Sequence record: MK962756
Reading direction: 5' to 3' (one strand)
Length of the DNA: 64,000 nucleotides
Origin: Shigella phage JK42
Below the pieces are notes generated by a model. It worked only from the letters and a program-made list of their open reading frames with translations. It was not told the origin of the DNA and made no database searches. A program made the position numbers and the translations under genes. Of the stretch, positions 2,227-62,324 are shown piece by piece (within the stretch, counting starts at the first letter, position 1; each line of letters begins with the position of its first letter).

Positions 2227-2427
2227 TCACAAGTTACGTTTAAAAATTTCTGCCACTTCGAGAAGTTCTTCTTTAGTAGCTGTATCGGTTTGTATTTTAT
2301 ATCGAATTTCTTTAAAGCGTTCTTTAAAGGACTCTGCTGACTCGATATCAAAAAATCTTTGGATAAGCCGGAATTCCCGGAGCACTGCTTTATCAAAAAG
2401 TTCCAAGTCCACGTTATATGTTCTCAT
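2227..2427 (-). CDS. small hypothetical protein at the rIIA.1 position
   Basis: 66-aa ORF directly downstream of rIIA on the same strand; assigned by position only. Confidence 0.45.
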   Translation of the reverse strand: MRTYNVDLELFDKAVLREFRLIQRFFDIESAESFKERFKEIRYKIQTDTATKEELLEVAEIFKRNL

Positions 2428-2452
2428 AATATTCTCTTCAGTAGATTCCTAG

Positions 2453-2503
2453 GGCACTATTACTAAAGACCATATAATCTATCATCTTATGTGTAATAGT
2501 GCC
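2453..2503. repeat. 11-bp perfect inverted repeat (GGCACTATTAC ... GTAATAGTGCC) with 29-nt A/T-rich loop
   Basis: Read directly: arms at 2453-2463 and 2493-2503; lies between the glycosyltransferase stop and the rIIA.1-like start. Confidence 0.4.
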
Positions 2504-2519
2504 TCAGGCTATTCAGGAT

Positions 2520-3620
2520 TTACGCTGTGAAGATTTTATCCCACATCGCAACAACTGCATCTCGGTTATACTTCTTCCATACTGCTTCAGCACGTTTAAC
2601 TCGAGCTTCGTATGTGTCAGTGAATTCTAATACAGCTTTTGTGTAAAGCGCAACTACTTCTTTCTTAGGAGTAGATGAATCAATTTCTACACGCACAGTA
2701 TCTGGGTCGTATTCAAATGTCGCATGAGGATAATCCTTAAAAACTAACTGGATTACAGGGACACCTTTAGAGATGGCTTCAATAGAACTATTCTCTACCG
2801 TACCTGTGTCAGGACAAGTATTAATAAGTGCTTTAGCTGTTTTAAGACGTTCCATGATTTCACTGTGTGGAGCATCAATAATAACAGGATATTTAGCCGG
2901 TGGCGCCCATTTGCTTGGACAGTATCCTGCACCATTTTCGCCTAGTGCTTTAATCGCTTCAAGAGCAACATCAGTACGACGCATTTTAGTGTCATAACGT
3001 TGTGCACTAATAATCAGATCCGTCGCCGGAAGAACTTCTGGCTTTTCAGTCAAACAAATAACCGGATAATCTTCGGCTTCAAACAACGGATTTGCTCGCC
3101 AATAATCATAATCAATTTTGTCAGTCAGACCTGAAGTCATATAACAATATTTACGTTCAAATTCACGGAAGGCTTTAGTAGGAGCATAACTCTTACCACC
3201 ATTCTTATGAATTTGAATAGTCTGGTCCCAAATTTGAACAATGCCACGAGATACCGGTTCAAATGGTGTTGCCATAAAATTCTTATGAACTTTAGAGAGA
3301 CCTGCGTCTTTAATTGCCTGAACGGTTAGTTTAGTCGGTTCCATAGTAACAACAAAATCGTATTCATGAATGCCGGCTAGTTCAACAATCTTACGAGCCA
3401 TAGTATAACTCATACCTAGACTGAATTTAGTCAGATGACCAACAGGATGATGATTAACCTTCCAATCACCAAATGTGTCATTATCAAAGCCGATATAATC
3501 AATATCAGCACCGATGGACACAAGATATTTCAACACATTTAAATGTACTGCTTCAAGACCACCTTGTACACGTTCTGGGTTAAATGGGACTGCGCGAGAT
3601 GGGATAAACATAACTTTCAT
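2520..3620 (-). CDS. GT-B fold glycosyltransferase (GT4-like); candidate DNA hmC sugar transferase
   Basis: 366 aa; N-terminus MKVMFIPSRAVPFNPERVQGGLEAVHLNVLKYL and C-terminal ...TGTVENSSIEAISKGVPVI resemble retaining GT-B enzymes; inserted between rIIA.1 and gene 39 where T4 has gene 60/mobA. Confidence 0.6.
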   Translation of the reverse strand: MKVMFIPSRAVPFNPERVQGGLEAVHLNVLKYLVSIGADIDYIGFDNDTFGDWKVNHHPVGHLTKFSLGMSYTMARKIVELAGIHEYDFVVTMEPTKLTVQAIKDAGLSKVHKNFMATPFEPVSRGIVQIWDQTIQIHKNGGKSYAPTKAFREFERKYCYMTSGLTDKIDYDYWRANPLFEAEDYPVICLTEKPEVLPATDLIISAQRYDTKMRRTDVALEAIKALGENGAGYCPSKWAPPAKYPVIIDAPHSEIMERLKTAKALINTCPDTGTVENSSIEAISKGVPVIQLVFKDYPHATFEYDPDTVRVEIDSSTPKKEVVALYTKAVLEFTDTYEARVKRAEAVWKKYNRDAVVAMWDKIFTA

Positions 3621-3646
3621 AATTAAGCCTTATTAAAATTAAAATG

Positions 3647-3664
3647 AAGCTCCCGAAGGAGCTT
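3647..3664 (-). terminator. hairpin AAGCTCC-CGAA-GGAGCTT followed on the minus strand by a U-rich tract
   Basis: 7-bp stem with 4-nt loop overlapping the gene 39 stop codon; minus-strand reading gives hairpin then CAUUUUAAUUUUAAU. Confidence 0.5.
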
Positions 3665-5480
3665 AGGACATCCATTCTTTACGAAGTTCTGAATCATCAC
3701 CCATCAACATTTCAAAGAGTTCTTTCCAATTTTCAGGAAGTTTAACTACGTCGTACACAGGGTTCTGAATCATTTCACGATATTCTGACTTTTCAAGGGA
3801 GCCTAATCCCTTGATGTATCTAATACTATGCTTAGGCAGTGTATCTTTAACTTCTTCATACTCAGCTACAGTATAAAACCATTTTTGAGTTTTGCCAATT
3901 TGTGCAATAATTACAGGTGTTTTAACAAAGCGAATACGTCCTTGTTCAAACAATTCAGGCCAATTACTAAAGAAAGCAAGCAAAGCCGGATAAATACTTC
4001 CAAGGCCGTCATGATCGGCATCGGTCATAATTGCAATATTACGGTAGTTCGTATTCTCTGCCTTTTCACCAAGAATAAGACCTGTGATAGCACAGATATC
4101 AAAGAGCTCTTTGTTCTTCATCATATCAGCATATGACATACCCCAGCTATTCATCACCTTACCACGTAATGGGAATCCACCGTGTAGTTCACGGTCACGA
4201 ACATCAATGAGATAACCAATTGCAGAATCACCTTCTGTTAAGAACAATGTCGTATCTGCATCTTTACCACATTGGTTAGCTTTAATATGCTTATGAACCT
4301 TAGCTTTAGTTGCCTTTTTAGCTGCTTTAGTTTCTGCAGCCTTTTCTGCCGCCAATTTACGAGCTAATGCTGCTTCAACAATAGGCATAATCAAGGCTTC
4401 GTTTTTAAGAAGTGCCTGAGCAATTTTCTTAGCATCTAATTGGATATGATTACGAATATCACCATACGTTGACGTTAAACGTTCTTTAGTCTGAGAATCA
4501 AAACGCATGTTGCTCATGTCTCTAATAAACATCAACATTGTGAGACATTCTTTAACACGAGCTTTAGTGACTTCAATACCCTTATATTTCTTTTTAATAC
4601 CGGGCAAAAGATGTTCGCAGATATCATCCATTACACATTCAACATGATGACCACCATTTTTAGTATGGATGTTATTCACATAAGTTAAATGACGGAAGCC
4701 ATCTGGTGATGTTGTGAATGCTATAGAGACTTTATCATTTTCTTGAATGATGTTATCTTCACCAAATTGTTTAGCAAATCGTTTAAAATTACCATCAACC
4801 TTTTTACCATTAAATGTGAACTTGATATCAGGATAAACGACTGCCAATGTTTGAAGTCTGTCTAAAGTAATATCTAAATAAATTTGAGATAAATTATGCT
4901 CTTCAAATGAAGAGAAATCAGGAGTGAAGATTACTTTAGTGCCTTTACATTTAGATTTCTTAGAAGACCATGATTTGTTTTCCATTCCGTTTGAACAGTT
5001 AACAGTGATTTCATTTTCGCCATCTGACGTGATGCCTGTAAACAACGTAGAGAAGATATTAGTTAAACTACTCCCGACGCCGTTCATACCACCAGTCTTG
5101 CGTTCAGAATCATCACCAAAGTTACCACCAGCCTTTGGAATAGTCCAGGCTGCTACAGGCCCAGGAATTTGTTCACCTGTTTGGTCGGTAACTAAACCTT
5201 GAGGAATACCACGTCCGTTATCTTCCACCGAAACTTGATTATTTTTAATTTGCACATCAATTTTATTTGCAAACTTAAATGATGTACGAATAGATTCATC
5301 AACCGAGTTGTCAATAATCTCATCGATTAATTTAACCAGACCAGGAACATATTCAACTTGTTGATATTTACCAAACAAAAAACGCTCATGTGCTTCTTTA
5401 GCAGAAGAACCAATATACATACCACTACGTTTCTTAATATGTTCTACATCTGACAATACCTTAATTTCATTTTTAATCAT
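3663..5480 (-). CDS. 39: DNA topoisomerase II large (ATPase, GyrB-like) subunit, fused 39/60 form
   Basis: 605 aa, GyrB-like sequence (…KKRSGMYIGSS…); the length fits the unsplit form of gp39 and no gene-60 bypass element is present. Confidence 0.9.
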   Translation of the reverse strand: MIKNEIKVLSDVEHIKKRSGMYIGSSAKEAHERFLFGKYQQVEYVPGLVKLIDEIIDNSVDESIRTSFKFANKIDVQIKNNQVSVEDNGRGIPQGLVTDQTGEQIPGPVAAWTIPKAGGNFGDDSERKTGGMNGVGSSLTNIFSTLFTGITSDGENEITVNCSNGMENKSWSSKKSKCKGTKVIFTPDFSSFEEHNLSQIYLDITLDRLQTLAVVYPDIKFTFNGKKVDGNFKRFAKQFGEDNIIQENDKVSIAFTTSPDGFRHLTYVNNIHTKNGGHHVECVMDDICEHLLPGIKKKYKGIEVTKARVKECLTMLMFIRDMSNMRFDSQTKERLTSTYGDIRNHIQLDAKKIAQALLKNEALIMPIVEAALARKLAAEKAAETKAAKKATKAKVHKHIKANQCGKDADTTLFLTEGDSAIGYLIDVRDRELHGGFPLRGKVMNSWGMSYADMMKNKELFDICAITGLILGEKAENTNYRNIAIMTDADHDGLGSIYPALLAFFSNWPELFEQGRIRFVKTPVIIAQIGKTQKWFYTVAEYEEVKDTLPKHSIRYIKGLGSLEKSEYREMIQNPVYDVVKLPENWKELFEMLMGDDSELRKEWMS

Positions 5481-5529: not shown

Positions 5530-5545
5530 AAGGGCCGAAGCCCTT
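5530..5545 (-). terminator. hairpin AAGGGC-CGAA-GCCCTT plus U tract
   Basis: 6-bp stem with 4-nt loop overlapping the stop of the 140-aa ORF; minus strand continues UUUUGCUUU. Confidence 0.5.
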
Positions 5546-7370: not shown

Positions 7371-7390
7371 ATTATTCTCCTCTGGTTGAT

Positions 7391-7426
7391 ATGGTTATAA
7401 TATCAAAACCAGAGGAGAAGTAAACT
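7391..7426 (-). promoter_or_regulatory. sigma70-type early promoter (GTTTAC -35; A/T -10)
   Basis: Plus strand shows ttataatatc ... gtaaac; minus strand reads GTTTAC, ~16-17 nt, TATTATAA; sits in the intergenic gap. Confidence 0.4.
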
Positions 7427-14324: not shown

Positions 14325-14398
14325 ATTGTTCTCCTCTTGAGTAAGTAAGAATATCTTAACACAGTTTTTAGTGGTTGTAAACTGTAGAAACAAAAAAA

Positions 14399-14416
14399 GG
14401 AATCCCGAAGGATTCC
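14399..14416 (-). terminator. intrinsic terminator GGAATCC-CGAA-GGATTCC plus U7
   Basis: 7-bp stem, 4-nt loop, followed on the minus strand by UUUUUUU; 9 nt downstream of the soc stop. Confidence 0.65.
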
Positions 14417-14424
14417 TTGAATTA

Positions 14425-19206: not shown

Positions 19207-19520
19207 ATTTCCTCGCAAAATGCCCATTCAGCGTGATAAACTGTAGCGCCTTTAGTATCATTCATTTGAACTACATCTACCGGAGAAATTACTCGATAGA
19301 GACGTGGTTCACCTCCATAAGAGCGTGCTGCTCGTCCTGCATAAATCTTTGCTAAACCGATATCTTCAGTAAAGAATACACGATCCAAGTTTTTCTTACG
19401 TCCAGTTTCAGACAGAACTCCTGTTTCTTCAGGAGGACAAAGCATGTTTTCGATGTTAGCTGAACTACTTGAACCGTGATAAAAAATCTTAAATTCTGCT
19501 TTACAATCGATGGTTTTCAT
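19203..19520 (-). CDS. hypothetical protein
   Basis: 105-aa ORF with early promoter upstream (~19543-19583). Confidence 0.45.
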   Translation of the reverse strand: MKTIDCKAEFKIFYHGSSSSANIENMLCPPEETGVLSETGRKKNLDRVFFTEDIGLAKIYAGRAARSYGGEPRLYRVISPVDVVQMNDTKGATVYHAEWAFCEEI

Positions 19521-19575
19521 TTTGTTCTCCAGTAGTTGATAGGTCTATAATAACACAACTACTGGAGAAGTAAAC

Positions 19576-19950: not shown

Positions 19951-20015
19951 AATGTTTTCCTCTTGGTTTGTGTAAGTACATCATATCATGCCTAGAGGAA
20001 GATGTAAACCCCGAA

Positions 20016-20033
20016 AGGAGACCGAAGTCTCCT
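20016..20033. terminator. hairpin AGGAGAC-CGAA-GTCTCCT; T-tract follows on the plus strand
   Basis: 7-bp stem; plus strand continues TTTTTATT (canonical for the plus orientation); minus strand continues UUCGGGGUUU (weaker); immediately 3' of gene 41. Confidence 0.4.
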
Positions 20034-20038
20034 TTTTA

Positions 20039-21490: not shown

Positions 21491-21853
21491 TTAAAAGAAT
21501 TTAAATTTTTTCTTGGTTCGTTCATTAAAAGCTTGTTGTACTTGCATTGTAACACATTTTTCAACGTGTGGTGCAAGTTCTGCTTTTCTGTCCTGGTCAA
21601 GAACTGCAAAGTCCATTACGATTTTACCATCAACCCAGTCTAGTTTTGTAATATAGACTATATGATGGGAACCGTCTTCAAGTGTAATCAGAATCTCTTG
21701 AATGACATTTTCCATTGCTGAACGGATAATTTTAAGAGATTCATTAAACACTCGTTCTTTGCGAATGTCTTCCCCTTCCGAAGAAGGGGATTCATCAACG
21801 ATTTCTAGATTTAAATCATCGAGATTATTCATCGAAATCTTCCATTTCGTCAA
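21491..21853 (-). CDS. 40: gp40-like protein (by position)
   Basis: 120 aa between 41 and uvsX as in T4; no motif confirmation. Confidence 0.45.
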   Translation of the reverse strand: MTKWKISMNNLDDLNLEIVDESPSSEGEDIRKERVFNESLKIIRSAMENVIQEILITLEDGSHHIVYITKLDWVDGKIVMDFAVLDQDRKAELAPHVEKCVTMQVQQAFNERTKKKFKFF

Positions 21854-22997
21854 GGTCGTTTTCTATATCTGCTGCAGATGGAGCATCAGAAGTTTTAACC
21901 GGAACTTTAGTTGTTGCTTTGCAATTAATAAGGTCGTTAACAGCGTCATCAACTTCTTTAATAGAAGAGATAGCACCTAGTTTATATTTAGTTTCAATTG
22001 CATCTCGGAAAGGTTTGTGTTTAAACAAAGGTCCCCAGAATTCTACACAATCAGTAGCTTTAGCACGCCATGATTTCTCTTCACGAATCATTTCACCTGT
22101 TTCTTCGTCAAGGAATTCACGAGCATACCACCCAGCTTTAGGCTTAACTACAAAACCAATTTCAGTTGCCATTTCTAACAAGCCACTGAATGGGTCGATA
22201 CCACCATCAAAATTAACTGTGATTGGGAAAGTAGATTTCTCTTTAACTGTACGAGATTTTTCTGCTTTCAGTGTGAAATCGTACCCAGTCAATTCTGTAC
22301 CTTCTTTAACCTGACGTTTAGAGATAAAGAATACAGTGTTAGCCGAGTAAAGAATACCTGTACCACCGCCCATAATCTCTTTAGGATACAATCCGCCGAT
22401 TTCCATTGCTGTATGGTTAATTGCAACACACGGAATATCTTTAATAGTCAGATAAGGAGTCACAATGCGGAACAAAGATTTAAGTGCCTTAGCACGAGAC
22501 ATATCACCTACAACTTTCTCGTTCAACGCATCTTCGGTTTCTTTCTTAGATGCAGTATTACCGATTGAATCGATAAAGATAATAACTTTATCACCGCGTT
22601 CAATCGCGTCAAGCTGATTAGTCATATCAACTTTAAGTTGTTCGACAGATTGAATCGGAGTATGAACTACACGGTCTAAATCAACACCCATTGAACGAAA
22701 ATAAGATTCTGAAGCACCGAATTCTGAGTCATAAAACAAACAGATTGCATCTTTATATTTCTTCATATATGCTGCAACCATGGTCAGCCCAAACAATGTT
22801 TTAAAGTGTTTAGAAGGAGCAGCAAAAATAGTTAAGCCTGATTGCAACCCGGCATTCAGTGCACCACCTAGTGCAATATTCAACATCGGAATACGAGTAG
22901 GGACTTCATCACGATTATTAAACAGCTTAGACTTAGTCAAGTCTGCAGTCATTTTAGAAGTAGAAGCTTTAATCAGACGAGATTTTAAATCAGACAT
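21825..22997 (-). CDS. uvsX: UvsX recombinase (RecA-like)
   Basis: 390 aa; MSDLKSRLIKASTSK... and ...GWYAREFLDEETGEMIREEKSWRAK... match remembered T4 UvsX. Confidence 0.92.
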   Translation of the reverse strand: MSDLKSRLIKASTSKMTADLTKSKLFNNRDEVPTRIPMLNIALGGALNAGLQSGLTIFAAPSKHFKTLFGLTMVAAYMKKYKDAICLFYDSEFGASESYFRSMGVDLDRVVHTPIQSVEQLKVDMTNQLDAIERGDKVIIFIDSIGNTASKKETEDALNEKVVGDMSRAKALKSLFRIVTPYLTIKDIPCVAINHTAMEIGGLYPKEIMGGGTGILYSANTVFFISKRQVKEGTELTGYDFTLKAEKSRTVKEKSTFPITVNFDGGIDPFSGLLEMATEIGFVVKPKAGWYAREFLDEETGEMIREEKSWRAKATDCVEFWGPLFKHKPFRDAIETKYKLGAISSIKEVDDAVNDLINCKATTKVPVKTSDAPSAADIENDLDEMEDFDE

Positions 22998-23095: not shown

Positions 23096-23644
23096 TTAAC
23101 GAGCCCATTTGATAATTTCTGTAATCAAATAATTACGTTCGCTTGCATTAAATCCTATAACTTTGTTAGCACCATCATGATTAAGTAATTGATACGTTTG
23201 GATTTTGTTATGAATTGCAAACTCTTCAAAATGTGAAATGACTGTATTAAAACCGAATGAAGACAAAGTAATAAGGTCGTCTTCAAAACTTTCAGTCATT
23301 TCGTTACGTGTTAAAATAATTGTGAACACATCATGGTTTTGGCAAAGACGAACATAGTCCTGTTCATAAACGTCAAGAATCGAGTCCGCATCTTGTCGAA
23401 TACGTCCATAAACCCAGTTACTAATATATCCACGGTCTAACAGATAAATCTTAGTAGGGTCTAAATAATTCAACATCGTTTCGAAACAGCCAACTTCATT
23501 TCGAGACTTAACATCGAAACGTCCATCAACTGTTCGTTTAGGGAAATCAATCTTTACATATCTTTCACTAATTTCCATTATGTCATTAATGAAAGTTGTT
23601 TTACCAGCATTATCCGGGCCATCTACTAAAATAATTTTAGCCAT
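23096..23644 (-). CDS. P-loop nucleotide/nucleoside kinase-like protein
   Basis: 182 aa; Walker A ILVDGPDNAGKTT in the thymidylate-kinase/deoxynucleoside-kinase style; occupies the T4 beta-gt locus. Confidence 0.5.
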   Translation of the reverse strand: MAKIILVDGPDNAGKTTFINDIMEISERYVKIDFPKRTVDGRFDVKSRNEVGCFETMLNYLDPTKIYLLDRGYISNWVYGRIRQDADSILDVYEQDYVRLCQNHDVFTIILTRNEMTESFEDDLITLSSFGFNTVISHFEEFAIHNKIQTYQLLNHDGANKVIGFNASERNYLITEIIKWAR

Positions 23645-23645
23645 T

Positions 23646-24545
23646 TTATTCCTCGATTACGACATCTTCATATTTAGGTATATTATACGGCGAAGAAATT
23701 AAAGCATTAAAGTAGATGAACTCACCAAGACCTGGATGGAATACTTCTTCAGGATTTTCGAAATATTGAATTTTCGGACGTCCTTTAAGAATTTGATAGT
23801 ACTCAGTTTTAGTTGGTTTAAAAATTCGAATCAGCGCTTCTTCAGGATACTTATTTCTGTCGAAGCTATTATTTGGATCGGTTATATAAAGCGGTTGACC
23901 TAATTGAATTGCGCATTCAACAACTTGTTCAAAACGATAGCATGGGTCACTAATTCGAAATGGATGAAAAATACCATCTAGATGAATAGGAGCCAAATCA
24001 CCTACAAGACGCTGCATGATGGAAGGACGTATAACTTTCTGCGTTACGATAATCTTATTACCATCTGCACCAGCGTTAACCAGCACTTCTTTTTGACGTT
24101 CATTCAACACAGTAGTTTGAAGTGAACGATTAACCGACAACATATCGGTTTTTAAGAATTCGTCAATATAAAAACGTGGTTTATTAGGGTCTGCAGTGAT
24201 ATTGAAATTGAATTCCACATCAAAAGCGCCGTCATATCCAGTGATATCTGTGATTAGAAAATCACAATCATAATAAGCAATTAATGAATCAACCACAAAT
24301 TCATTTTCAGACCAGAAATATTTACGAGTGTTATACGCGTTATCTTTATACCATAATGGAACAAACTTAAATTCTGGAAAAAGACGTTCGCATTCTTTAA
24401 TATCAGATGCATTACGTGGATATGTAATCACATCACCCGGATTAGCACGGTGCAAATGAAGTTGGAAGTTGCCATCCTTAAGGATAGCATACTGTCCAGT
24501 TTCATAAGACCGCATACTCAAGATAGGTACGCGGAAAATAGCCAT
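23646..24545 (-). CDS. hypothetical protein (beta-gt positional replacement)
   Basis: 299-aa ORF between the kinase-like gene and gene 42; no recognisable motif. Confidence 0.5.
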   Translation of the reverse strand: MAIFRVPILSMRSYETGQYAILKDGNFQLHLHRANPGDVITYPRNASDIKECERLFPEFKFVPLWYKDNAYNTRKYFWSENEFVVDSLIAYYDCDFLITDITGYDGAFDVEFNFNITADPNKPRFYIDEFLKTDMLSVNRSLQTTVLNERQKEVLVNAGADGNKIIVTQKVIRPSIMQRLVGDLAPIHLDGIFHPFRISDPCYRFEQVVECAIQLGQPLYITDPNNSFDRNKYPEEALIRIFKPTKTEYYQILKGRPKIQYFENPEEVFHPGLGEFIYFNALISSPYNIPKYEDVVIEE

Positions 24546-25261
24546 TAGTCAAGGAATCCTTTAACATAATCAAAATCACGTTCAAACACATGGGCACTTA
24601 CCATGGTATGAGTATAATCACCAACTTCTACACCACATTCATTAGCGATATAATGAAGTAATTTTCCTTGGAGATAAAAATCCAACTGCATAACAACAGC
24701 ACAGTTCTGAGAACGCATATGACAGTGGGTATAAAGCTTACCATCACGAATATAATAAGTCACTGAGTCAGTACATGGATATTCAAGCGTTTCGTCCGAA
24801 TCAAGCAAAGCCTGATCAGAACTTTCTAGAATTTGGAACACAACTCTTCGAGAGTTAGGCTTCTCTTTAAGTTCTTTTAGAAGAGCTGGTAATTGAGCCG
24901 CAATGCGAGGACCATAGAAAGTGTTGAAGTTCGCCGGCAAAACATCTGATTTTGGTTTAGAAATAAATTTAGCGACATTAGGATATGCCTTAAACGCTTC
25001 TTCTGCGTTGGTACCACCAGAAATCATAAACTTCCAGAAGTCTTCGGCATATTCATAAGAGATGCGGTTAATACGTGGGTCGGTCATTTTGAATGATGAT
25101 GGAGTGTCAACAACTACTGTCATAGACCCAATTTCATTACAACGTCCAATACGAGAATCAGTTACGAATTCCGGGTTTTCTAAAATTTCACGATTGACTG
25201 CTTTAAATGCGGTTTGAAAATCTGCGGCTTTGATATATTTCATTGTGTTATGTTTTCCCAT
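24545..25261 (-). CDS. 42: dCMP hydroxymethylase (thymidylate-synthase fold)
   Basis: 238 aa; SRRVVFQIL...YPCTDS...YIRDGKLY...HMRSQN aligns by eye with the T4 gp42 / thymidylate synthase active-site region. Confidence 0.7.
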   Translation of the reverse strand: MGKHNTMKYIKAADFQTAFKAVNREILENPEFVTDSRIGRCNEIGSMTVVVDTPSSFKMTDPRINRISYEYAEDFWKFMISGGTNAEEAFKAYPNVAKFISKPKSDVLPANFNTFYGPRIAAQLPALLKELKEKPNSRRVVFQILESSDQALLDSDETLEYPCTDSVTYYIRDGKLYTHCHMRSQNCAVVMQLDFYLQGKLLHYIANECGVEVGDYTHTMVSAHVFERDFDYVKGFLD

Positions 25262-25302: not shown

Positions 25303-25542
25303 TTATTTGAATTTCTTGGCAATGTTGATATAACGTAAAGCTTCAGCATCGATACTTCCAAGAACACTATGAAGAAATGCATCAGCGTAGTATTCCAATT
25401 GAACAGGTTCTTTAATCACTTTAGCCGCTTTAGTTTCAAACAGGCCCATCAGGGCCTTTTTAAGAATTTGTTCATTAGTGTTCAGTTTCATAGTCAAAAT
25501 CTCTTCATTAAGTTGGTGGTTAAAAGTTTTTCTAGAAATCAT
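25303..25542 (-). CDS. hypothetical small protein
   Basis: 79-aa ORF. Confidence 0.4.
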   Translation of the reverse strand: MISRKTFNHQLNEEILTMKLNTNEQILKKALMGLFETKAAKVIKEPVQLEYYADAFLHSVLGSIDAEALRYINIAKKFK

Positions 25543-26714
25543 TCCGGGTACCTCAAAGCGTCATCAGAGTTAGTTATATCAATAATAGATATAGAGTTTT
25601 CTGCTAACCCGTTTTTAGATAATTGACGTTTATAATATCTTTCACAATATGTACACGTCGTCCCGCAGATTTCATTAGCACAATCGAAATCTGGATGTCT
25701 GAACCACCTTTTTTCTAAAAAGCCATCTAACAAAGAGGTTTCAATATTTACTGTATGTGAAAACTCAGTTTCGTTTTCAAGAGTGAAAATAGTCTCTAAA
25801 GGCTTCCACAGTTCTAACAAATTACCTTCAAACTTTTCAGAAGCGTATGCTTCAAGAACTTTCAAAATGTAGTCTGTGCTACCTGTACGTCCTGAAACTT
25901 TGAATTGAGTGATACCAATATCATTATAAAGTTTCAAATCTTGAGGACGAACAAAACGAGTTCTCAGCCAGTTAAATGGGTCTGTATCACGAGCTTTAAT
26001 GCAGTGTTGCATTGGATATCCATTTAAGGATTTAGCATCATCAGCGGTAACATCAGTACTATGGAAAATATAGCAAGAGTCACGATAGCTACAATGTGTT
26101 GTATACCCTTTACCAGCATTAGAACAGAACTCATTTACAAGAACTTCAAATATTATATTGTTCTTATTGCAAAACTCTGCTGCACGCTTCAGGAAAGAAA
26201 CTGAACGGTTCTTATGAATTCCACAGCAGACCTTTTTGATATTATATTGGTCATGCAAGTATTTGATTTGAGTTACAGCATCGACATGTAGAATTGTTGA
26301 AACTTCAATCTCAATGTCTTTATTGACTTCACGAACAATTTCCATAACAACAGGGTTAGCGATAGTAATACGCCATACGCCTATTGACCAAAGATACTGA
26401 ACATAATCCTGAATAGCTTTCTTCTTCCACTCAACTAGTTCTCTTTTTGAACCAGGATTTATCGTGTTGAGTGTATAGTTAAAGCAAATACCTAATTCGT
26501 TACAACGTTTAACGTAATCTTCTAACATCTTTTTGTCAACGTCAGGAAGCCTAAAATCAGGTCTGGCTGCTACAAAAGCCATTTCTCTTGTAGAGCCGTA
26601 TACTTCGTTTATCAAGCTATTAGGATAAGTTTTATTGAGCTCTACGATTTTATCAAGAAGAGCTAAATCAAAATTCGTTCCGATTTTAAAAGTATTCATT
26701 TTTTTGCATCTCAC
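25539..26714 (-). CDS. Cys-rich protein with C-terminal CX4CX3CX2C cluster (possible Fe-S enzyme)
   Basis: 391 aa; ...FCSNAGKGYTTHCSYRDSCYIFH... and ...DFDCANEICGTTCTYCERYY... ; the CGTTCTYC segment fits the CX3CX2C pattern with an aromatic residue before the last Cys. Confidence 0.45.
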   Translation of the reverse strand: MRCKKMNTFKIGTNFDLALLDKIVELNKTYPNSLINEVYGSTREMAFVAARPDFRLPDVDKKMLEDYVKRCNELGICFNYTLNTINPGSKRELVEWKKKAIQDYVQYLWSIGVWRITIANPVVMEIVREVNKDIEIEVSTILHVDAVTQIKYLHDQYNIKKVCCGIHKNRSVSFLKRAAEFCNKNNIIFEVLVNEFCSNAGKGYTTHCSYRDSCYIFHSTDVTADDAKSLNGYPMQHCIKARDTDPFNWLRTRFVRPQDLKLYNDIGITQFKVSGRTGSTDYILKVLEAYASEKFEGNLLELWKPLETIFTLENETEFSHTVNIETSLLDGFLEKRWFRHPDFDCANEICGTTCTYCERYYKRQLSKNGLAENSISIIDITNSDDALRYPE

Positions 26715-26755: not shown

Positions 26756-27157
26756 TTATAGATTTGGTTTATATGATTTAAATGTTTCGAATTCGCCTTT
26801 ATTCATAAGAGCTTTGAATTCATCAGGACGCATAGCTTTGTCGTCGATAATCCAATCATATACTGGTTTATGTGTTAGCAAATTATGGTACTTCAAACCA
26901 ATGTTTTCCAAGTTCTGAATCAGACTTGGGAGAATGTCAATTGCTATACGACCAGGACCTACTGACTTCATACCACGAGCAGTGTAAAGCGTTATGGTAT
27001 GCCCTGCATCATACAGGGCATTAATGGCAGACACCATTTCGACGTCTGGTTTGAAGTTCACGTAATCACGATTGTTATTCCATTCCGTGATGCAATCATC
27101 GACATCAAAACAAAGATTAAGCATGTTTTCTACACGGTGCATTAGATTCGTTCCCAT
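26756..27157 (-). CDS. HAD-superfamily phosphatase-like protein
   Basis: 133 aa; motif I-like FDVDDCIT, later T, K and IIDDK acidic motif. Confidence 0.5.
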   Translation of the reverse strand: MGTNLMHRVENMLNLCFDVDDCITEWNNNRDYVNFKPDVEMVSAINALYDAGHTITLYTARGMKSVGPGRIAIDILPSLIQNLENIGLKYHNLLTHKPVYDWIIDDKAMRPDEFKALMNKGEFETFKSYKPNL

Positions 27158-28827
27158 TGATGAGTGATATCGCCACCGATTGGACGATAGGAAACACCAG
27201 TTTCTTTATCAGTTAGTACCCATTTACCAGGATTTTTTGTAATCAGAGTAGCCGTTACAGGTTCTGCTACGTCATAACTAATAGAGCCGTCCTGAAGTAC
27301 ACGGCCCATGTTACGTAATTGCTTAGTCAGAAGTTCCATACCTTTATAATATGCGGCTACCGCTTTAAGTGGATTATTCTTGAAATAACCACCTAATGCA
27401 ATCCAGATAATTGCCACTGCCAAATGATGATACTCGTTAAACGAACTCATCTTTCCATATTTGTAAACTAATGGATTGATGTTAATAGTCACATTACAAG
27501 TTGTTTCATCAATAGTAAACTGCCCCCAGGTCGGATTAGCATTGAATTCATCATAACCTGAAACAGCATAAAGCACTTTAGCTTCATCATACAATTTTGG
27601 CCCGTAAATCTTGGTTTCGCCAAAATATCCACGAGGGTCGATAAACTTGACTTCGCCGTTATCAGTAATCATAGTATTACTGAAGTTCGGGTCACCATGA
27701 ATAACAGAGTACTGTCCCTGAGAACGGTTATGATAACGAATAAGGTGTTCTAAAGCTTGTTTCAGCATTGGCTTCAGACGTCCAATCTTAGTGTAGTTCA
27801 CATGTGTGATTTTACCAAATGAATCAATCAATGGTTGAATGCTTTCACAACGATCAATAACTTTCGTATAGAATTCTTTAGTGAAATCACGACGAACAGT
27901 TTCAGGACTTACAAAATAAGTGTCTGTGCTGAATTTCAGTGCATCTAAAATTGCATCAATAATTTGTGGACGAGCAAGACTTGATTTTGATTTAATATAT
28001 TCAAATGCCGGCTTACCTTTAATGCGTTCCATTTCAAAGTTATTTTCATTAACAGAAACTAACTGAGGAACTGAATCTGATTTCACTTTCAAATACCACG
28101 AAATCTCATCTTTCTGAAGAGCTCGACCATGTTCGGTTAATGCGAATTTAGTTACAGTTTCTTCGCCAATTTCAACTGCATTAAAACTACGATTAAGTTC
28201 ACGAACTTCATGAGCCTTTTCAAGTTTAGGCATATCACCTAAATCAATTATATTCATAAGCTCTGATTTATTGAATGCGCTGCCGTAAAGGAATTCTACG
28301 AAATCACGTCCTTTGCAGTATTCATGAATTTCCTCATCGGTAGAACCCATATAGAATTCCCAGTCTTTGAACTGATAAATTCCTACAACATTACCACCTG
28401 TTGAACCTACGTTAGTGATATTTTCACCGTCGAAATTATATCGACATTCGTCACCCTTAACATAGATTGCGTTAACATTCCAAGACCATGAACCAAAATC
28501 AGGAATAATATCACACCAGTTAACAATTACATTATGGCCGTCTAAATCTTTGTGTAATTTAGCAAGAGCATAAGCAGAACCATACGCTTCATCAACTGTA
28601 CGAATAGTCACATTGAACCCTTCTTGCTCACAATAAGCTCGAACAGTTTCAGCAAATTTTGAATGAACTACTACAATAATTTCATCTGCGCCAAGGTCAG
28701 AATAAATTGTATACAAATTGCTCAGAATAGTGTCTTGTTTATAATTAACAAGCACCTTAGGAATATGATGCGTTATTGGATACAAACGAGTTGCCAGTCC
28801 AGCACCAAGAATAACAGCTTTTTTCAT
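27142..28827 (-). CDS. bifunctional sugar-1-phosphate nucleotidyltransferase (N-term) / APH-fold anomeric sugar kinase (C-term)
   Basis: 561 aa; N-term MKKAVILGAGLATRLYPITHHIPKVLV resembles RmlA/MurU-type NTases; C-term ...VIHGDPNFSNTMITDNGEVKFIDPRGYFG is the HGDxxxxN...D kinase motif of APH/choline-kinase/AmgK-type kinases. Confidence 0.7.
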   Translation of the reverse strand: MKKAVILGAGLATRLYPITHHIPKVLVNYKQDTILSNLYTIYSDLGADEIIVVVHSKFAETVRAYCEQEGFNVTIRTVDEAYGSAYALAKLHKDLDGHNVIVNWCDIIPDFGSWSWNVNAIYVKGDECRYNFDGENITNVGSTGGNVVGIYQFKDWEFYMGSTDEEIHEYCKGRDFVEFLYGSAFNKSELMNIIDLGDMPKLEKAHEVRELNRSFNAVEIGEETVTKFALTEHGRALQKDEISWYLKVKSDSVPQLVSVNENNFEMERIKGKPAFEYIKSKSSLARPQIIDAILDALKFSTDTYFVSPETVRRDFTKEFYTKVIDRCESIQPLIDSFGKITHVNYTKIGRLKPMLKQALEHLIRYHNRSQGQYSVIHGDPNFSNTMITDNGEVKFIDPRGYFGETKIYGPKLYDEAKVLYAVSGYDEFNANPTWGQFTIDETTCNVTININPLVYKYGKMSSFNEYHHLAVAIIWIALGGYFKNNPLKAVAAYYKGMELLTKQLRNMGRVLQDGSISYDVAEPVTATLITKNPGKWVLTDKETGVSYRPIGGDITHQWERI

Positions 28828-28868: not shown

Positions 28869-29012
28869 CTAGTTAAAGCATTCATACTTTGCTTGTAGTC
28901 CAATCATAATCCATCCAATTACAAGTGTTGGAATCATTACCGGAGCCGTTAAGCTCCAGTAGATAGTCATGACAAGCATCAATAGTAAAAGTCCTATTGT
29001 TATTGCTTTCAT
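28869..29012 (-). CDS. small predicted membrane protein
   Basis: Hand translation: MKAITIGLLLLMLVMTIYWSLTAPVMIPTLVIGWIMIGLQAKYECFN (47 aa); start overlaps the SIS gene stop (ATGA); below the ORF-track cutoff. Confidence 0.3.
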   Translation of the reverse strand: MKAITIGLLLLMLVMTIYWSLTAPVMIPTLVIGWIMIGLQAKYECFN

Positions 29013-29644
29013 TGTTCGCCTCGTAACATGGCACCTAGTGCACCGCCTGGATGGAACTTAAGGAAATCATTAGAGGTAAATCCACGTTCAGACGAAAGGT
29101 TGATAGCAAACGTATCGATAAGTGCTAACAACAATGTAGTGGACATCGTCGGAGCTAAAGAGTTCTCGTCAACTTCTACCGCGATACCGGTGCAGAACGT
29201 ATAATCAAAAAGAGCTTCGTATTCTTGTGGAATGTCAGGGTTACAATGTAACAGAATCTGTTTAACCTGAGGACGAATCATACGAAGATGTTTAGCAACA
29301 CCTATCATTTCTTCAGTTTTACCAGAACGACTAATATGAATCAACACGTCATTAGGCGCAATAAATCCTGCGTCACCATGAGAATAATGCCCGGTGTTCA
29401 AATACATGCTAGGAATACCTAGTGAAGCAAAAGTCTCGGAAGCTTTAGTTGCGATATTAGCATTCTTACCAACACCTGTAATAATTACCCGGCTTTCATA
29501 ATTACTAAGTCCAGGGCGTCGAAGAGTTTCTAGAATAGCATTATAACGAGCAGGGTTTTGACTAATTACTTTAGCCATAGTGGCAAGAGATGAAGCTTGT
29601 TTTACGATTGCGTCAATAGCGATAGTAATAGGAGTAGTTTTCAT
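29009..29644 (-). CDS. SIS-domain sugar-phosphate isomerase, KdsD/GutQ-like (arabinose-5-phosphate isomerase) without CBS domains
   Basis: 211 aa; VIITGVGKNANIATKASETFASLGIPSMYLNTGHYSHGDAGFIAPNDVLIHISRSGKTEE aligns with the remembered KdsD SIS core (GMGKSGHIGKK...HGDLGMV...ISNSGES). Confidence 0.7.
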   Translation of the reverse strand: MKTTPITIAIDAIVKQASSLATMAKVISQNPARYNAILETLRRPGLSNYESRVIITGVGKNANIATKASETFASLGIPSMYLNTGHYSHGDAGFIAPNDVLIHISRSGKTEEMIGVAKHLRMIRPQVKQILLHCNPDIPQEYEALFDYTFCTGIAVEVDENSLAPTMSTTLLLALIDTFAINLSSERGFTSNDFLKFHPGGALGAMLRGEQ

Positions 29645-32784: not shown

Positions 32785-32865
32785 TTAATTTCCTTTAGAC
32801 GAGTTATTGTCTTTTGTTTGTTGATGAACTTATTATACTCCAAATGGGACCGAAGTCCCATTGCT

Positions 32866-38180: not shown

Positions 38181-38409
38181 TACACGCTTCAGCCATTTTA
38201 AGAATAGAGCCGGGAGTATCGTTGTCCATTATATTAAAGCTAAATTCAATAGCCCAGTCGGTGCAGACATGAACTGCTTTAACTTCATTGCCTTCAACGC
38301 GTAATGGCTCAATCCAATACTTGATAGTGTTCTCGAATCCATCATCGTCTTTAACGTCCATTTCAACTTCAAGTCCAAGCCCAGCATTATTAAATTCATC
38401 TAAAGTCAT
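38152..38409 (-). CDS. hypothetical small acidic protein
   Basis: 85-aa ORF. Confidence 0.4.
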   Translation of the reverse strand: MTLDEFNNAGLGLEVEMDVKDDDGFENTIKYWIEPLRVEGNEVKAVHVCTDWAIEFSFNIMDNDTPGSILKMAEACIEDAYNGED

Positions 38410-39425
38410 TGTGTTGCCTCAATATAAAGTTCGTTGGAATATTTGACCAGCGCTTCTCTGTCTTCGTCTGAGATATCTGGAATCGCGTCAATATATTCTT
38501 TAATGATATCTTGAAGTGATTTAATCTCGATTTCCTGGTCATCATCAGATTCAACACTGTTATCAACTTTAGAAACCATACGAAGAGAGTGAACTACTTT
38601 TTCAAGTTCAGATTCAAACTTAGTCAACTCTGAATCAATTTCTGATACTATAACACGTACGGCTAGATTAGTATAATCAGAATAATTAATTTTGCCTTTA
38701 AACGGATAAGTGATTCGTCGATGCCATGTTGTTTCATTAGGAATAAATTCCATACGTTCAACATCAGTGTCAAATACCCAGAATCCGCGTGGGTCGTTCT
38801 CATCGCCTGCAGTAAGGGTCCATGGTGTCCCAATATATTTGACGTTAGCAGCTTCAGAGATTGTGTGGAAGTGGCCGGACCAGACTTGTTTATAGGTCTT
38901 TAAGAAATCAGGTTCAAGCCCATGAGACTTCATTCCTTTATAGAAATAAAAGCCATTCAGTTCCCAGTGCCCAACACAATACGCTGCGGAAGAAGTCTTG
39001 ATGTGCTCTAAGATTTCACCTGTATTTTCTTCACACATCCATGGAACGATATCAATCAGACATCCGTCAAAATCTACAGTAGTTGGATGTTCATAAATAG
39101 TAAAGTTTTCAAATTGAGTTAACAATTCAGAAACAGTGTTAGGTGTTATTGTATTCTTAAACGCCATGTCATGGTTTCCTATCGTGACATGAACGTGAAT
39201 GCCTGCTTTAGAAATCATATCAACGATTTCACGATTGAATTCCATTGTACGATGTGTTATTGCTTTACGGACGTCAAACCAATCACCGTACTGAATCCAA
39301 GTTTTAATCCCGTGTTTCTTAGAGTATTCAATTGCTTGACGAATACCATCACGTTGAATATCTTGAACCCATGGGTCGTCTTGTTTGACTCCGATATGGA
39401 AGTCGCCTAAGTGCAAAATTTTCAT
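38406..39425 (-). CDS. 47: recombination endonuclease subunit (Mre11/SbcD-like)
   Basis: 339 aa; MKILHLGDFHIGVK... phosphoesterase motifs GDWFD, GNHD; matches remembered T4 gp47. Confidence 0.9.
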   Translation of the reverse strand: MKILHLGDFHIGVKQDDPWVQDIQRDGIRQAIEYSKKHGIKTWIQYGDWFDVRKAITHRTMEFNREIVDMISKAGIHVHVTIGNHDMAFKNTITPNTVSELLTQFENFTIYEHPTTVDFDGCLIDIVPWMCEENTGEILEHIKTSSAAYCVGHWELNGFYFYKGMKSHGLEPDFLKTYKQVWSGHFHTISEAANVKYIGTPWTLTAGDENDPRGFWVFDTDVERMEFIPNETTWHRRITYPFKGKINYSDYTNLAVRVIVSEIDSELTKFESELEKVVHSLRMVSKVDNSVESDDDQEIEIKSLQDIIKEYIDAIPDISDEDREALVKYSNELYIEATQ

Positions 39426-39477
39426 ATTATTTCCTCATTAGTTAATTCATTTTATCATCCATTTATAAAGCAAAAAA

Positions 39478-39495
39478 GGAACTCCGAAGAGTTCC
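39478..39495 (-). terminator. intrinsic terminator GGAACTC-CGAA-GAGTTCC plus U6
   Basis: 7-bp stem; minus strand continues UUUUUUGCU. Confidence 0.55.
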
Positions 39496-39668
39496 TATCC
39501 ACATAGTACACCGTACAGAGGCTCATTTGAACTTTTAAATCGAATGGGCTTGTATGTAATAGTTCCTTCGGCTTTAGCTTTATCATAAGACTCTTTAAAA
39601 CGTCTCATTCTTTCTGCTTTGCCTTTACGGATTTTATCGAAATTTTCAGAAGTCGGGATGTTCGTCAT
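39495..39668 (-). CDS. small hypothetical protein
   Basis: Hand translation: MTNIPTSENFDKIRKGKAERMRRFKESYDKAKAEGTITYKPIRFKSSNEPLYGVLCG (57 aa); stop abuts the terminator. Confidence 0.3.
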   Translation of the reverse strand: MTNIPTSENFDKIRKGKAERMRRFKESYDKAKAEGTITYKPIRFKSSNEPLYGVLCG

Positions 39669-55474: not shown

Positions 55475-55552
55475 TTCGTTTCGATAGGTCTATAATAACA
55501 TATCCTAAAAGCATGTACACTACTTTTTTTAAAAATATTTTAACCCCCTAAA

Positions 55553-55568
55553 GGGACCCGAAGGTCCC
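55553..55568 (-). terminator. hairpin GGGACC-CGAA-GGTCCC
   Basis: 6-bp GC-rich stem 6 nt past the stop of 55574..55840; weak U tract. Confidence 0.4.
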
Positions 55569-55573
55569 CGCAT

Positions 55574-62263: not shown

Positions 62264-62324
62264 TTTGATTTCTCCTCTAGTTGACAGGTCTATAGTAACA
62301 CAACTAGAGGAGAAGTAAACTACT

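Follow-up and report, generated by a model that had tools for sequence, protein, structure and literature searches.

A GT-B glycosyltransferase gene beside rIIA.1 in Shigella phage JK42 and its probable role as the second DNA arabinosyltransferase

The gene and the RNA structures at its ends

The window analyzed here, a stretch of 64,000 nucleotides, comes from a Mosigvirus, or RB69-like phage, and spans its first 64 kb. Situated on its minus strand between rIIA.1 (2227-2427; Pfam T4_RIIA1) and the fused 60+39 topoisomerase gene (3663-5480) is a gene for a 366-aa GT-B glycosyltransferase (2520-3620), which begins with ATG and is preceded by a Shine-Dalgarno-like AAGG (3628-3631, minus strand), read from the sequence and located 7 nt 5' of the start codon. 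As the earlier note on this DNA had recognized, this is the slot held in T4 by gene 60 and mobA. The surrounding DNA is 98-99% identical to other Mosigvirus genomes and shares its coordinates with RB69. The protein is 99.2% identical to its orthologue RB69 ORF003c/gp3 (NP_861693) and 98% identical to the crystallized glycosyltransferase of phage HY126 (PDB 9IQZ; 9IR0 with UDP), and the few substitutions that separate it from them include nothing substantive. Its match to PHROG 8302 (E = 3e-222) covers residues 1-366, indicating full-length homology. The gene is, in other words, the already described and crystallized sugar transferase of the RB69 ORF003c/gp3 type, real but not new. A DNA-arabinosyltransferase role was proposed for this type of gene in papers from 2018 to 2026, RB69 gp3 bears the published label "beta-arabinosyltransferase 2," and the gene, fold, UDP complex and probable role are all in print already.

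Directly upstream in the transcript, and overlapping the gene 39 stop codon, a C(UUCG)G tetraloop hairpin occupies 3647-3664 on the minus strand (AAGCTCC-TTCG-GGAGCTT). Its 7-bp stem includes four GC pairs capped by the UUCG loop and is followed by the tail CAUUUUAAUUUU, with CATTTTAATTTT placed directly after the hairpin. The terminator-like hairpin of the earlier note is thus present, with the stem-loop and U-tract of rho-independent terminators; the records of KAW3E185 and PhAPEC2 annotate it as a terminator called by ARNold, and it is invariant in seven Mosigviruses. Its folding is not unusual for its local context (z = -0.72). Eight C(UUCG)G hairpins occur in the window, all on the minus, transcribed strand, which marks this one as generic punctuation rather than a gene-specific bracket. 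The interruption of its U-tract, together with the lack of a promoter-like site between the hairpin and the ATG, suggests leakiness. Near the glycosyltransferase gene there is no late TATAAATA box, and sigma-70-like matches fall only inside gene 39, at a frequency no higher than in shuffled sequences. The element resembles either an intrinsic terminator with some leakage or a structure that stabilizes RNA. It would be the usual T4-type punctuation of a transcript, placed where gene 39 ends, so that read-through probably puts the glycosyltransferase gene on the same transcript as gene 39.

The downstream structure is of a different kind. A long minus-strand stem-loop (2448-2508) lies in the gap that separates the glycosyltransferase stop codon from the start of rIIA.1, and is built around the 11-bp perfect inverted repeat reported earlier, GGCACTATTAC/GTAATAGTGCC at 2453-2463/2493-2503. 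This core has four further pairs on its outer side and a small hairpin on its inner side, and the arms extend to 16 nt at 88% complementarity. With a minimum free energy of -28.5 kcal/mol (z = -4.6), it folds better than every one of 200 shuffles. The stem is followed by AAUCUACUGAAGAG in place of a U-tract, and the terminator scan does not list it. Nor did an Rfam scan of the gene and its flanks, this stem-loop included, return a match, and the arm motif is not repeated elsewhere in the window. The structure is kept in seven Mosigviruses, with a single A.C mismatch in RB69 and a CT>TC change in AV114 that completes a 16-bp perfect stem. Those changes, one breaking and one improving the pairing, are the only pair-affecting differences at either hairpin among the seven sequences, in which covariation gives no support for either structure; at 97-99% identity, the alignment is uninformative in this respect. 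Most plausibly, the stem-loop would act as a 3' stabilizer or processing site.

Could the two structures be functional ends of a cassette that is mobile or under its own regulation, serving as recombination or homing sites or as a terminator/regulator pair? Comparison of the window with Dhakavirus JS98 finds homology only outside 2398-3662, such that the gene and both structures appear as one swapped segment, and JS98 carries two unrelated small ORFs in the slot. AV114 carries a homing-endonuclease gene along with a divergent allele of gene 39; the two join precisely at the final 12 nt of gene 39, beside the hairpin. In Acinetobacter phages, the paralogues of the glycosyltransferase reside at a different locus. 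Against such a role for the structures themselves, the upstream and downstream elements share no sequence relationship, the former is a member of the class of eight noted above, and JS98 too has a hairpin after its gene 39, albeit a different one. GC content (0.39-0.41 inside the gene versus 0.35-0.41 outside) carries no signal of recent acquisition. The segment has no flanking direct repeats, the window contains no integrase or homing gene, and the gene has no promoter-like site of its own after the hairpin. We therefore regard functional cassette ends as improbable. Of the acquired or separately regulated cassette proposed in the earlier note, what survives is a swappable segment between conserved genes; separate regulation is not borne out by an upstream hairpin that belongs to a genome-wide class, nor by two structures that both lack covariation support.

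Fold and family of the 366-aa protein

The AlphaFold2 model of the protein (pLDDT 90) consists of two Rossmann-like domains with an inter-domain cleft, as in GT-B enzymes. Structure prediction and comparison with T4 beta-gt and other GT-B enzymes, the check that had been suggested, thus upheld the fold and not a kinship with beta-gt: the T4 beta-glucosyltransferase has neither sequence nor close structural similarity to the protein. The T4 alpha-glucosyltransferase (alpha-gt; PDB 1Y6F/1XV5) likewise gave no sequence-profile match. Scans against Pfam (no family at E <= 1, Glycos_transf_1, PF00534, included) and NCBIfam found no family. The likeness to CAZy GT4 and Glycos_transf_1 is structural only. 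The best non-orthologous structural matches are BshA, PimA, MshA, WaaG, WaaB and sucrose-phosphate synthase, all at 10-15% identity, and the acceptors of such GT4-type enzymes (BshA, PimA, MshA, WaaG, sucrose-phosphate synthase) are unrelated to that considered here. GT4 enzymes typically bear an EX7E motif. This motif is absent from the family, in which the conserved glutamates E276 and E281 are spaced as EX4E. Invariant throughout the family are G20-G21, R208, R214, K263, E276 and E281. E281 and G20-G21 are candidates for the ribose-binding glutamate and the N-terminal glycine-rich loop of GT-B enzymes; Thomas et al. aligned E281 with E311 of T4 alpha-gt. The donor-site residues of the family are conserved. 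In the crystal structure of the 98%-identical orthologue (9IR0), UDP is bound.

The company that the protein keeps in structural searches raises the question of whether it glycosylates something other than DNA, such as LPS or lipid of the host, some small molecule, or a protein of the phage. PimA, BshA, WaaG and WaaB are GT-B enzymes that act on lipids, small molecules and polysaccharides, and some database records name the protein a PimA-like mannosyltransferase or a "cell wall biosynthesis" glycosyltransferase. These resemblances, however, are at 10-15% identity, and the family has no Pfam or NCBIfam match. In the phage genome collection, the family occurs only in Straboviridae that have the arabinose/5-hydroxycytosine cluster, in Acinetobacter phages it sits inside the arabinose operon, and paralogues act on DNA in vitro (PMC13326640). 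A non-DNA acceptor is, accordingly, very hard to credit.

The arabinose and 5-hydroxycytosine cluster

The earlier note saw in this gene the enzyme that moves a phage-made sugar onto hmC. A GT-B enzyme of a phage DNA-sugar pathway it is, but the base is 5-hydroxycytosine, not hmC, with arabinose attached to the C5 ether oxygen (PMC13326640, PMC13390438). In RB69-like phages, this base carries beta-Araf-(1-3)-alpha-Araf. A complete arabinose/5-hydroxycytosine cluster lies within the window at 23.1-29.6 kb, about 20 kb from the glycosyltransferase gene, which is therefore an orphan by position and not otherwise. All members of the cluster described below are on the minus strand. The acceptor base is the product of a ThyA-like 5-hydroxy-dCMP synthase (24545-25261; Pfam Thymidylat_synt), near-identical (E = 8e-161 to PDB 9IQC/9IR2) to the crystallized HY126 enzyme, which has been described as a flavin-containing hydroxylase homologue; activity was shown for its RB69 counterpart, gp48 (PMC13326640). 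A SIS-domain arabinose-5-phosphate isomerase (29009-29644; Pfam SIS) corresponds to RB69 gp55 and is syntenic with genes of DLP1, DLP3 and LC53. The bifunctional NTP-transferase/kinase at 27142-28827 (Pfam NTP_transferase plus kinase-like matches), similar to HY126 AfhE, is of the RB69 gp52:53 type that makes UDP-arabinofuranose (PMC13326640). Two smaller products have no Pfam match. One (26756-27157) holds the position of RB69 gp51 and HY126 AfhF, a HAD-like phosphatase by synteny with the "HAD-like protein" of DLP1 (PMC13326640). The other (23096-23644), an ORF between the first glycosyltransferase of the cluster and uvsX, is nucleotide-kinase-like and holds the position of RB69 gp45; the syntenic genes of DLP1 and LC53 are annotated as thymidylate-kinase-like.

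The remaining member is a second GT-B-fold gene (23646-24545), which encodes a 299-aa protein equivalent to RB69 gp46:47 and DLP3 gp79. Located between the gene-42 homologue and uvsX, beside the ThyA-like gene, it takes up the position equivalent to beta-gt. The canonical glucosyltransferase loci, reported as empty, are thus so only in part: no GT-sized ORF follows gene 47, where alpha-gt would be, whereas the beta-gt position is filled. Its model (pLDDT 94) matches MshA and UDP-GlcNAc 2-epimerases in Foldseek, i.e., a GT-B/UDP-sugar-enzyme fold. The family comprises 348 phage records, LC53 and Thanatos among them, and is found in all arabinosylating relatives. This type of protein was proposed as the first, base-proximal arabinosyltransferase (PMC13326640), for which it is probably a better candidate than the 366-aa enzyme. 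A recent duplication linking the two glycosyltransferase families was tested by profile-profile comparison, which returned a probability of 0.3%; at the level of sequence, they are unrelated. Any division of labor between the two GT-B proteins is nonetheless provisional, since UDP-xylose pyrophosphorylase activity was reported for the Thanatos counterpart of what would be the first transferase (PMC12838424).

Copy number, acceptor and product

The family of the 366-aa enzyme is tiny: of 1.84 billion representative clusters, 11 belong to it. The family is limited to Mosigvirus, with one copy, and to T4-like phages of Acinetobacter, with two copies within the arabinose operon, and in the phage database its hosts are nested within those of the 299-aa family. 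One record named "Tegunavirus" also matches the family; no such record is among the matches listed when a divergent family member serves as the query. This distribution parallels the number of sugars on the DNA. LC53 and Thanatos, which had no match to the family in the phage database search, have mono-arabinosylated DNA (10.64898/2025.12.19.695335; PMC13326640). The DNA of RB69, NP, Bas46 and Bas47 is di-arabinosylated, and that of DLP3 is tri-arabinosylated (PMC13326640). Hence there are no copies in mono-arabinosyl phages, one in di-arabinosyl Mosigviruses and two in tri-arabinosyl Acinetobacter phages, the copy number tracking the sugar number minus one.

A closely related known system is that of the Acinetobacter phage DLP3, a Lazarusvirus, whose gp77 and gp76 (arabinosyltransferases 2/3) belong to the same family and the same arabinosyl-5-hydroxycytosine pathway as the JK42 gene. 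The JK42 protein is 43% identical to gp77 and 41% identical to gp76 over the full length. The two DLP3 genes are paralogues arranged in tandem inside the arabinose operon, their products sharing 58% identity, whereas Mosigviruses have one such gene, 20 kb off the cluster; the sugar chains differ likewise, a tri-arabinoside in the Acinetobacter phages as opposed to a di-arabinoside in Mosigviruses. In vitro, with UDP-Araf as the donor, gp76 and gp77 jointly place a third arabinose on RB69 DNA, and no single DLP3 glycosyltransferase is active on bare 5-hydroxycytosine DNA (PMC13326640). One copy in di-arabinosyl phages, two in tri-arabinosyl ones, and paralogues that extend already arabinosylated DNA together indicate that the likely acceptor is the first arabinose, not the base.

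This bears directly on the reading in which the 366-aa enzyme is itself the base-proximal transferase, moving the first arabinose from UDP-Araf to the modified cytosine while the 299-aa protein does something else. Such was the view of the earlier note, and of a proposal from 2018, once hmC is replaced by 5-hydroxycytosine. However, LC53 and Thanatos arabinosylate their DNA without any homologue of the enzyme, its copy number follows the sugars minus one, and the DLP3 paralogues, which extend arabinosylated DNA, are inactive on the bare base (PMC13326640). We consider this reading unlikely; with a second GT-B-fold gene beside the ThyA-like gene, the 366-aa enzyme is not the sole candidate for transfer to the base and probably not the best.

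Our preferred interpretation is that the 366-aa protein is probably a UDP-binding GT-B extender, which would place the second arabinose onto arabinosyl-5-hydroxycytosine DNA, with the hairpin as mere punctuation. In the pathway we infer, dC would be replaced by 5-hydroxy-dC via the ThyA-like enzyme (24545-25261), and UDP-D-arabinofuranose would be produced by the cluster at ~26.7-29.6 kb. The GT-B enzyme at 23646-24545 would act first, attaching the alpha arabinose to the C5 oxygen; the enzyme at 2520-3620, working on replicated phage DNA, would then join the second arabinose to this one through a beta-(1-3) linkage. Acceptor, linkage and order of the two GT-B enzymes are conditional throughout this scheme. 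By analogy, the donor would again be UDP-Araf, given the UDP complex of the orthologue (9IR0) and the use of UDP-Araf shown for DLP3 gp76 plus gp77 only. The outcome would be a mixture of mono- and di-arabinosyl forms, as in RB69-type phages.

That gp76 and gp77 are active only together (PMC13326640) suggests that a single-enzyme model may be too simple. The enzyme might be non-autonomous, engaged in a complex or an obligate cooperation with the other GT-B protein, and might contribute acceptor recognition besides or instead of catalysis. In phage NP, mono- and di-arabinosyl forms occur at 1:4, so the second arabinosylation step is incomplete, a further point in favor of such dependence. The HY126 orthologue, on the other hand, was crystallized alone with UDP, Mosigviruses have a single member of the family, and 20 kb separate its gene from that of the other glycosyltransferase. 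On balance, we think obligate cooperation distinctly unlikely, and return to the extender as the more probable role.

Addition of a sugar to another sugar already present on DNA has a precedent. The beta-glucosyl-alpha-glucosyl-hmC transferase of T2 and T6 is a second glucosyltransferase, and makes gentiobiosyl-hmC. It is a functional analogue of the extender proposed here, extending a sugar that a modified cytosine in DNA already bears, yet it differs in base (hmC), sugar (glucose) and donor (UDP-Glc); the T2/T6 data on hmC glucosylation are cited in PMC13390438 and PMC6024577. As for the biological purpose, arabinosylated 5-hydroxycytosine shields RB69-type DNA from restriction enzymes as well as some CRISPR nucleases and some modification-dependent ones, and the number of sugars appears to alter which defenses are evaded (PMC13326640, PMC13390438, PMC12923530). 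An assignment of enzymes to sugars would help in the engineering of Mosigviruses for therapy and in the production of DNA with defined glycosylation.

The stereochemistry of the second bond merits a closing observation. BshA, PimA, MshA, WaaG and sucrose-phosphate synthase, the close structural neighbors of the 366-aa protein, are retaining enzymes, so that an alpha-linked UDP-sugar as donor would sit awkwardly with a beta product. Assigning the linkage from retaining versus inverting neighbors was tried and proved not decisive, their identity to the protein being just 10-15% and the answer hinging also on the anomeric configuration of the donor. More speculatively, one might entertain, with considerable doubt, that the enzyme recognizes a sugar carried by duplex DNA and makes the beta-(1-3) Araf-Araf bond on a retaining-type scaffold, and that the stem-loop at 2448-2508 could tune expression of the enzyme and thereby the ratio of mono- to di-arabinose. 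Were this true, either the UDP-arabinofuranose made by the phage would have an unusual anomeric configuration, or the catalytic mechanism would have changed within a GT4-like fold.

A GT-B gene in the gene 60/mobA slot and its known product

The 366-aa GT-B ORF occupies 2520–3620 on the minus strand and starts with an ATG seven bases downstream of an AAGG. It is flanked by rIIA.1 (2227–2427; Pfam T4_RIIA1) and by the topoisomerase II large-subunit gene, gene 39 (3663–5480; 605 aa), annotated in the RB69 record as a fused "60plus39" gene. This position corresponds to that of the split gene 60 and mobA in T4, as the earlier note had proposed. DNA of the region is 98–99% identical to ~150 Mosigvirus genomes; in RB69 the coordinates are identical and the ORF is RB69ORF003c. 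The protein has no match in Pfam or NCBIfam, and matches PHROG 8302 (annotated "unknown function") end to end. A profile search of PDB sequences matched it to the 369-residue chain of 9IQZ/9IR0, the glycosyltransferase of phage HY126 (E = 3e-163). These structures are presumably those of He et al. 2026 (Nat Chem Biol). Phage database records disagree on the orthologues, naming them hypothetical protein, DNA alpha-glucosyltransferase, ATP-binding protein, or GDP-mannose-dependent PimA-like mannosyltransferase.

Both the literature and the PDB already contain the finding as a whole. Arabinose was detected in RB69 DNA by Thomas et al. (2018, PMC6024577), who, using custom HMMs and HHpred, nominated ORF003c as an arabinosyltransferase with a GT-B fold. 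The chemistry was subsequently revised: the base is 5-hydroxy-dC, produced by a ThyA-like enzyme, and its C5 oxygen carries beta-D-Araf-(1-3)-alpha-D-Araf in RB69, with gp3 (ORF003c) designated "beta-arabinosyltransferase 2" and gp46:47 "arabinosyltransferase 1" (Lee et al. 2026, PMC13326640).

Candidate first and second transferases

The equivalent of gp46:47 bears on a premise of the earlier note, namely that both canonical T4 glucosyltransferase loci are empty. This is correct for alpha-gt: 3′ of gene 47 (38406–39425), only ORFs of 73–107 aa precede the next larger gene, leaving the position without a transferase-sized gene. The beta-gt-equivalent position is in fact occupied: flanked by the gene-42 homologue and uvsX, it includes a second GT-B-fold protein of 299 aa (23646–24545). 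In descending order, the genes here encode a SIS isomerase (29009–29644), an NTP-transferase/kinase (27142–28827), a small ORF in the HAD position (26756–27157), a U32-like protein (25539–26714), a ThyA-like protein nearly identical to PDB 9IQC/9IR2 (24545–25261), the 299-aa protein, a kinase-like protein (23096–23644), and UvsX (21825–22997). The peptidase-U32-like protein (391 aa), embedded in this arabinose/5-hydroxy-C cluster, has a syntenic "putative peptidase" in LC53; the DLP1 and DLP3 operons are without one.

No Pfam family matches the 299-aa protein. Its structural model (pLDDT 94, from an alignment of 36 sequences) matches MshA and further GT-B transferases, as well as UDP-GlcNAc 2-epimerases, which are structurally related; the protein shows no profile similarity to the ORF003c family (hhalign probability 0.3%). 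The RB69 record still divides its gene into ORF046c/047c. The Thanatos homologue, TH1_063, was reported to act as a UDP-xylose pyrophosphorylase in vitro (PMC12838424), which conflicts with the transferase assignment of the family (PMC13326640).

We examined the published gp3 assignment by the phyletic distribution of the two families. The ORF003c family is very narrow, comprising 11 clusters among 1.84 billion representative proteins in an exhaustive HMM search. Its 211 records in the phage genome collection comprise Escherichia and Shigella Mosigviruses, with one copy each, 55 Acinetobacter T4-like phages, each with copies at two places, and a single record whose organism name begins "Tegunavirus". 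This last record matches at <60% identity and, if real, would represent a third lineage; Yersinia phage records of that genus gave no match. The family of the 299-aa protein reaches much further, with at least 138 protein clusters and 348 phage records, extending to Dhakavirus, to Klebsiella, Edwardsiella, Yersinia, Proteus, and Serratia phages, among them Serratia phage LC53, and to Shewanella phage Thanatos-1.

Mono-arabinosylated DNA was reported for LC53 and Thanatos (10.64898/2025.12.19.695335; PMC13326640), and neither, though both are in the searched database, has an ORF003c-family match. RB69, NP, Bas46, and Bas47 are di-arabinosylated, and the Acinetobacter phage DLP3, whose DNA is tri-arabinosylated (PMC13326640), carries two tandem paralogues within its arabinose operon. 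Zero, one, and two copies thus accompany mono-, di-, and tri-arabinosyl DNA, such that copy number is one below the number of sugars in every phage for which chemical data exist. The protein encoded here is 43% identical to DLP3 gp77 and 41% to gp76, which are closer to each other (58%), making it co-orthologous to both. In published assays, gp76 and gp77 together extended RB69 DNA by a third arabinose, with UDP-Araf as donor; bare 5hoC DNA was not modified by any DLP3 transferase alone (PMC13326640).

Taken with the DLP3 biochemistry, the copy-number pattern best supports a probable role for the enzyme in adding arabinose to an arabinose already present on DNA. Two observations tell against it: its structural neighbours are known as retaining enzymes, yet the distal linkage is beta, and the Thanatos 299-aa homologue was reported to have pyrophosphorylase-type activity. 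The earlier note had cast the ORF as the best candidate for the enzyme placing a sugar on hmC, which is half right: a DNA-sugar transferase it is, yet the base is 5-hydroxy-dC (PMC13326640), and the copy pattern and DLP3 biochemistry indicate that the base is probably not its acceptor.

Flanking RNA structures

Both predicted flanking structures are real features of the sequence. Upstream in the transcript, a terminator-like AAGCUCC-UUCG-GGAGCUU hairpin (3647–3664) overlaps the stop codon of gene 39 and has CAUUUUAAUUUU on its 3′ side. It is unchanged in seven Mosigviruses, is annotated as a terminator by ARNold in two related records, and does not stand out from its local context (z = −0.72). 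By script, eight C(UUCG)G hairpins whose stems reach at least 5 bp were counted across the window. All lie on the transcribed minus strand (3647–3664, 5530–5545, 14397–14418, 20014–20035, 21771–21790, 32843–32862, 39477–39496, and 55552–55569); their stems measure 6–9 bp, and in several a U-tract follows. Such hairpins are familiar in T4-type intercistronic regions. Given this common class, and since no promoter-like site was found between the hairpin and the glycosyltransferase ATG, the simplest reading is that the gene would be co-transcribed with gene 39 by read-through.

Downstream, the 11-bp perfect inverted repeat (2453–2463/2493–2503) extends to even longer, 16-nt arms at 2448–2508. The 80-nt region folds at −28.5 kcal/mol (z = −4.6; 0/200 shuffles as good), and the stem-loop is conserved among the Mosigviruses compared, with an A·C mismatch within the "perfect" core in RB69 itself. 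In the Mosigvirus AV114, a CT>TC change closes the bulge in the outer helix to give an uninterrupted 16-bp stem, mildly suggesting selection on pairing. No U-tract follows the stem-loop and Rfam has no match to it; it ends 20 nt before the rIIA.1 ATG, leaving that ribosome-binding site uncovered. Our best guess, held with low confidence, is a 3′ stabiliser or processing site.

A replaceable segment

Comparison with the Dhakavirus JS98 supports the earlier proposal of a cassette insofar as the segment has been swapped. Gene 39 is homologous up to its stop codon (3663), where homology ends, to restart inside rIIA.1 at 2397; together, the glycosyltransferase gene and both structures thus make up a single non-homologous block. 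JS98 instead has a 588-bp gap here, unannotated in its record (NC_010105.1 2437–3024), with two plausible small, unrelated ORFs (53 and 107 aa) and a different terminator-like hairpin, GGGCCGCAAGGCCC-UUUU, between them, while in Acinetobacter phages the family lies in the arabinose operon. In Escherichia phage AV114 (OR352944.1 76527–79147), a 265-aa homing-endonuclease gene separates gene 39, an allele 80% identical to that of JK42, from a GT/rIIA side that is 94.5% identical. Endonuclease gene and allele adjoin the GT segment precisely at the final 12 nt of gene 39, which are repeated at the junction, marking this boundary as a recombination hot spot. The same boundary in T4, with mobA, is likewise a recombination hot spot. 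The other sense of cassette, recent acquisition or mobility, is disfavoured by ordinary GC content, by flanking structures unrelated to each other, and by the 64-kb window, in which no mobility gene was found.

In Shigella phage JK45 (MK962757.1 about 2412–3417), the rIIA.1 start, the stem-loop, and roughly the final 400 bp of the glycosyltransferase gene are covered by a tandem duplication whose copies are 100% identical and spaced 503 bp apart, and an additional 136-aa ORF results. The duplication could be very recent, or an artefact of assembly. Elsewhere in the window, intergenic inverted repeats at 7375–7419, 19520–19574, and 62265–62319 share UUCUCC.../...GGAGAA arms on the transcribed strand. 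At the first and last, the 3′ arm contains the Shine-Dalgarno sequence, placed a few bases ahead of an ATG on the minus strand (7370; 62263), and the repeats look like the ribosome-binding-site-sequestering hairpins known from T4.
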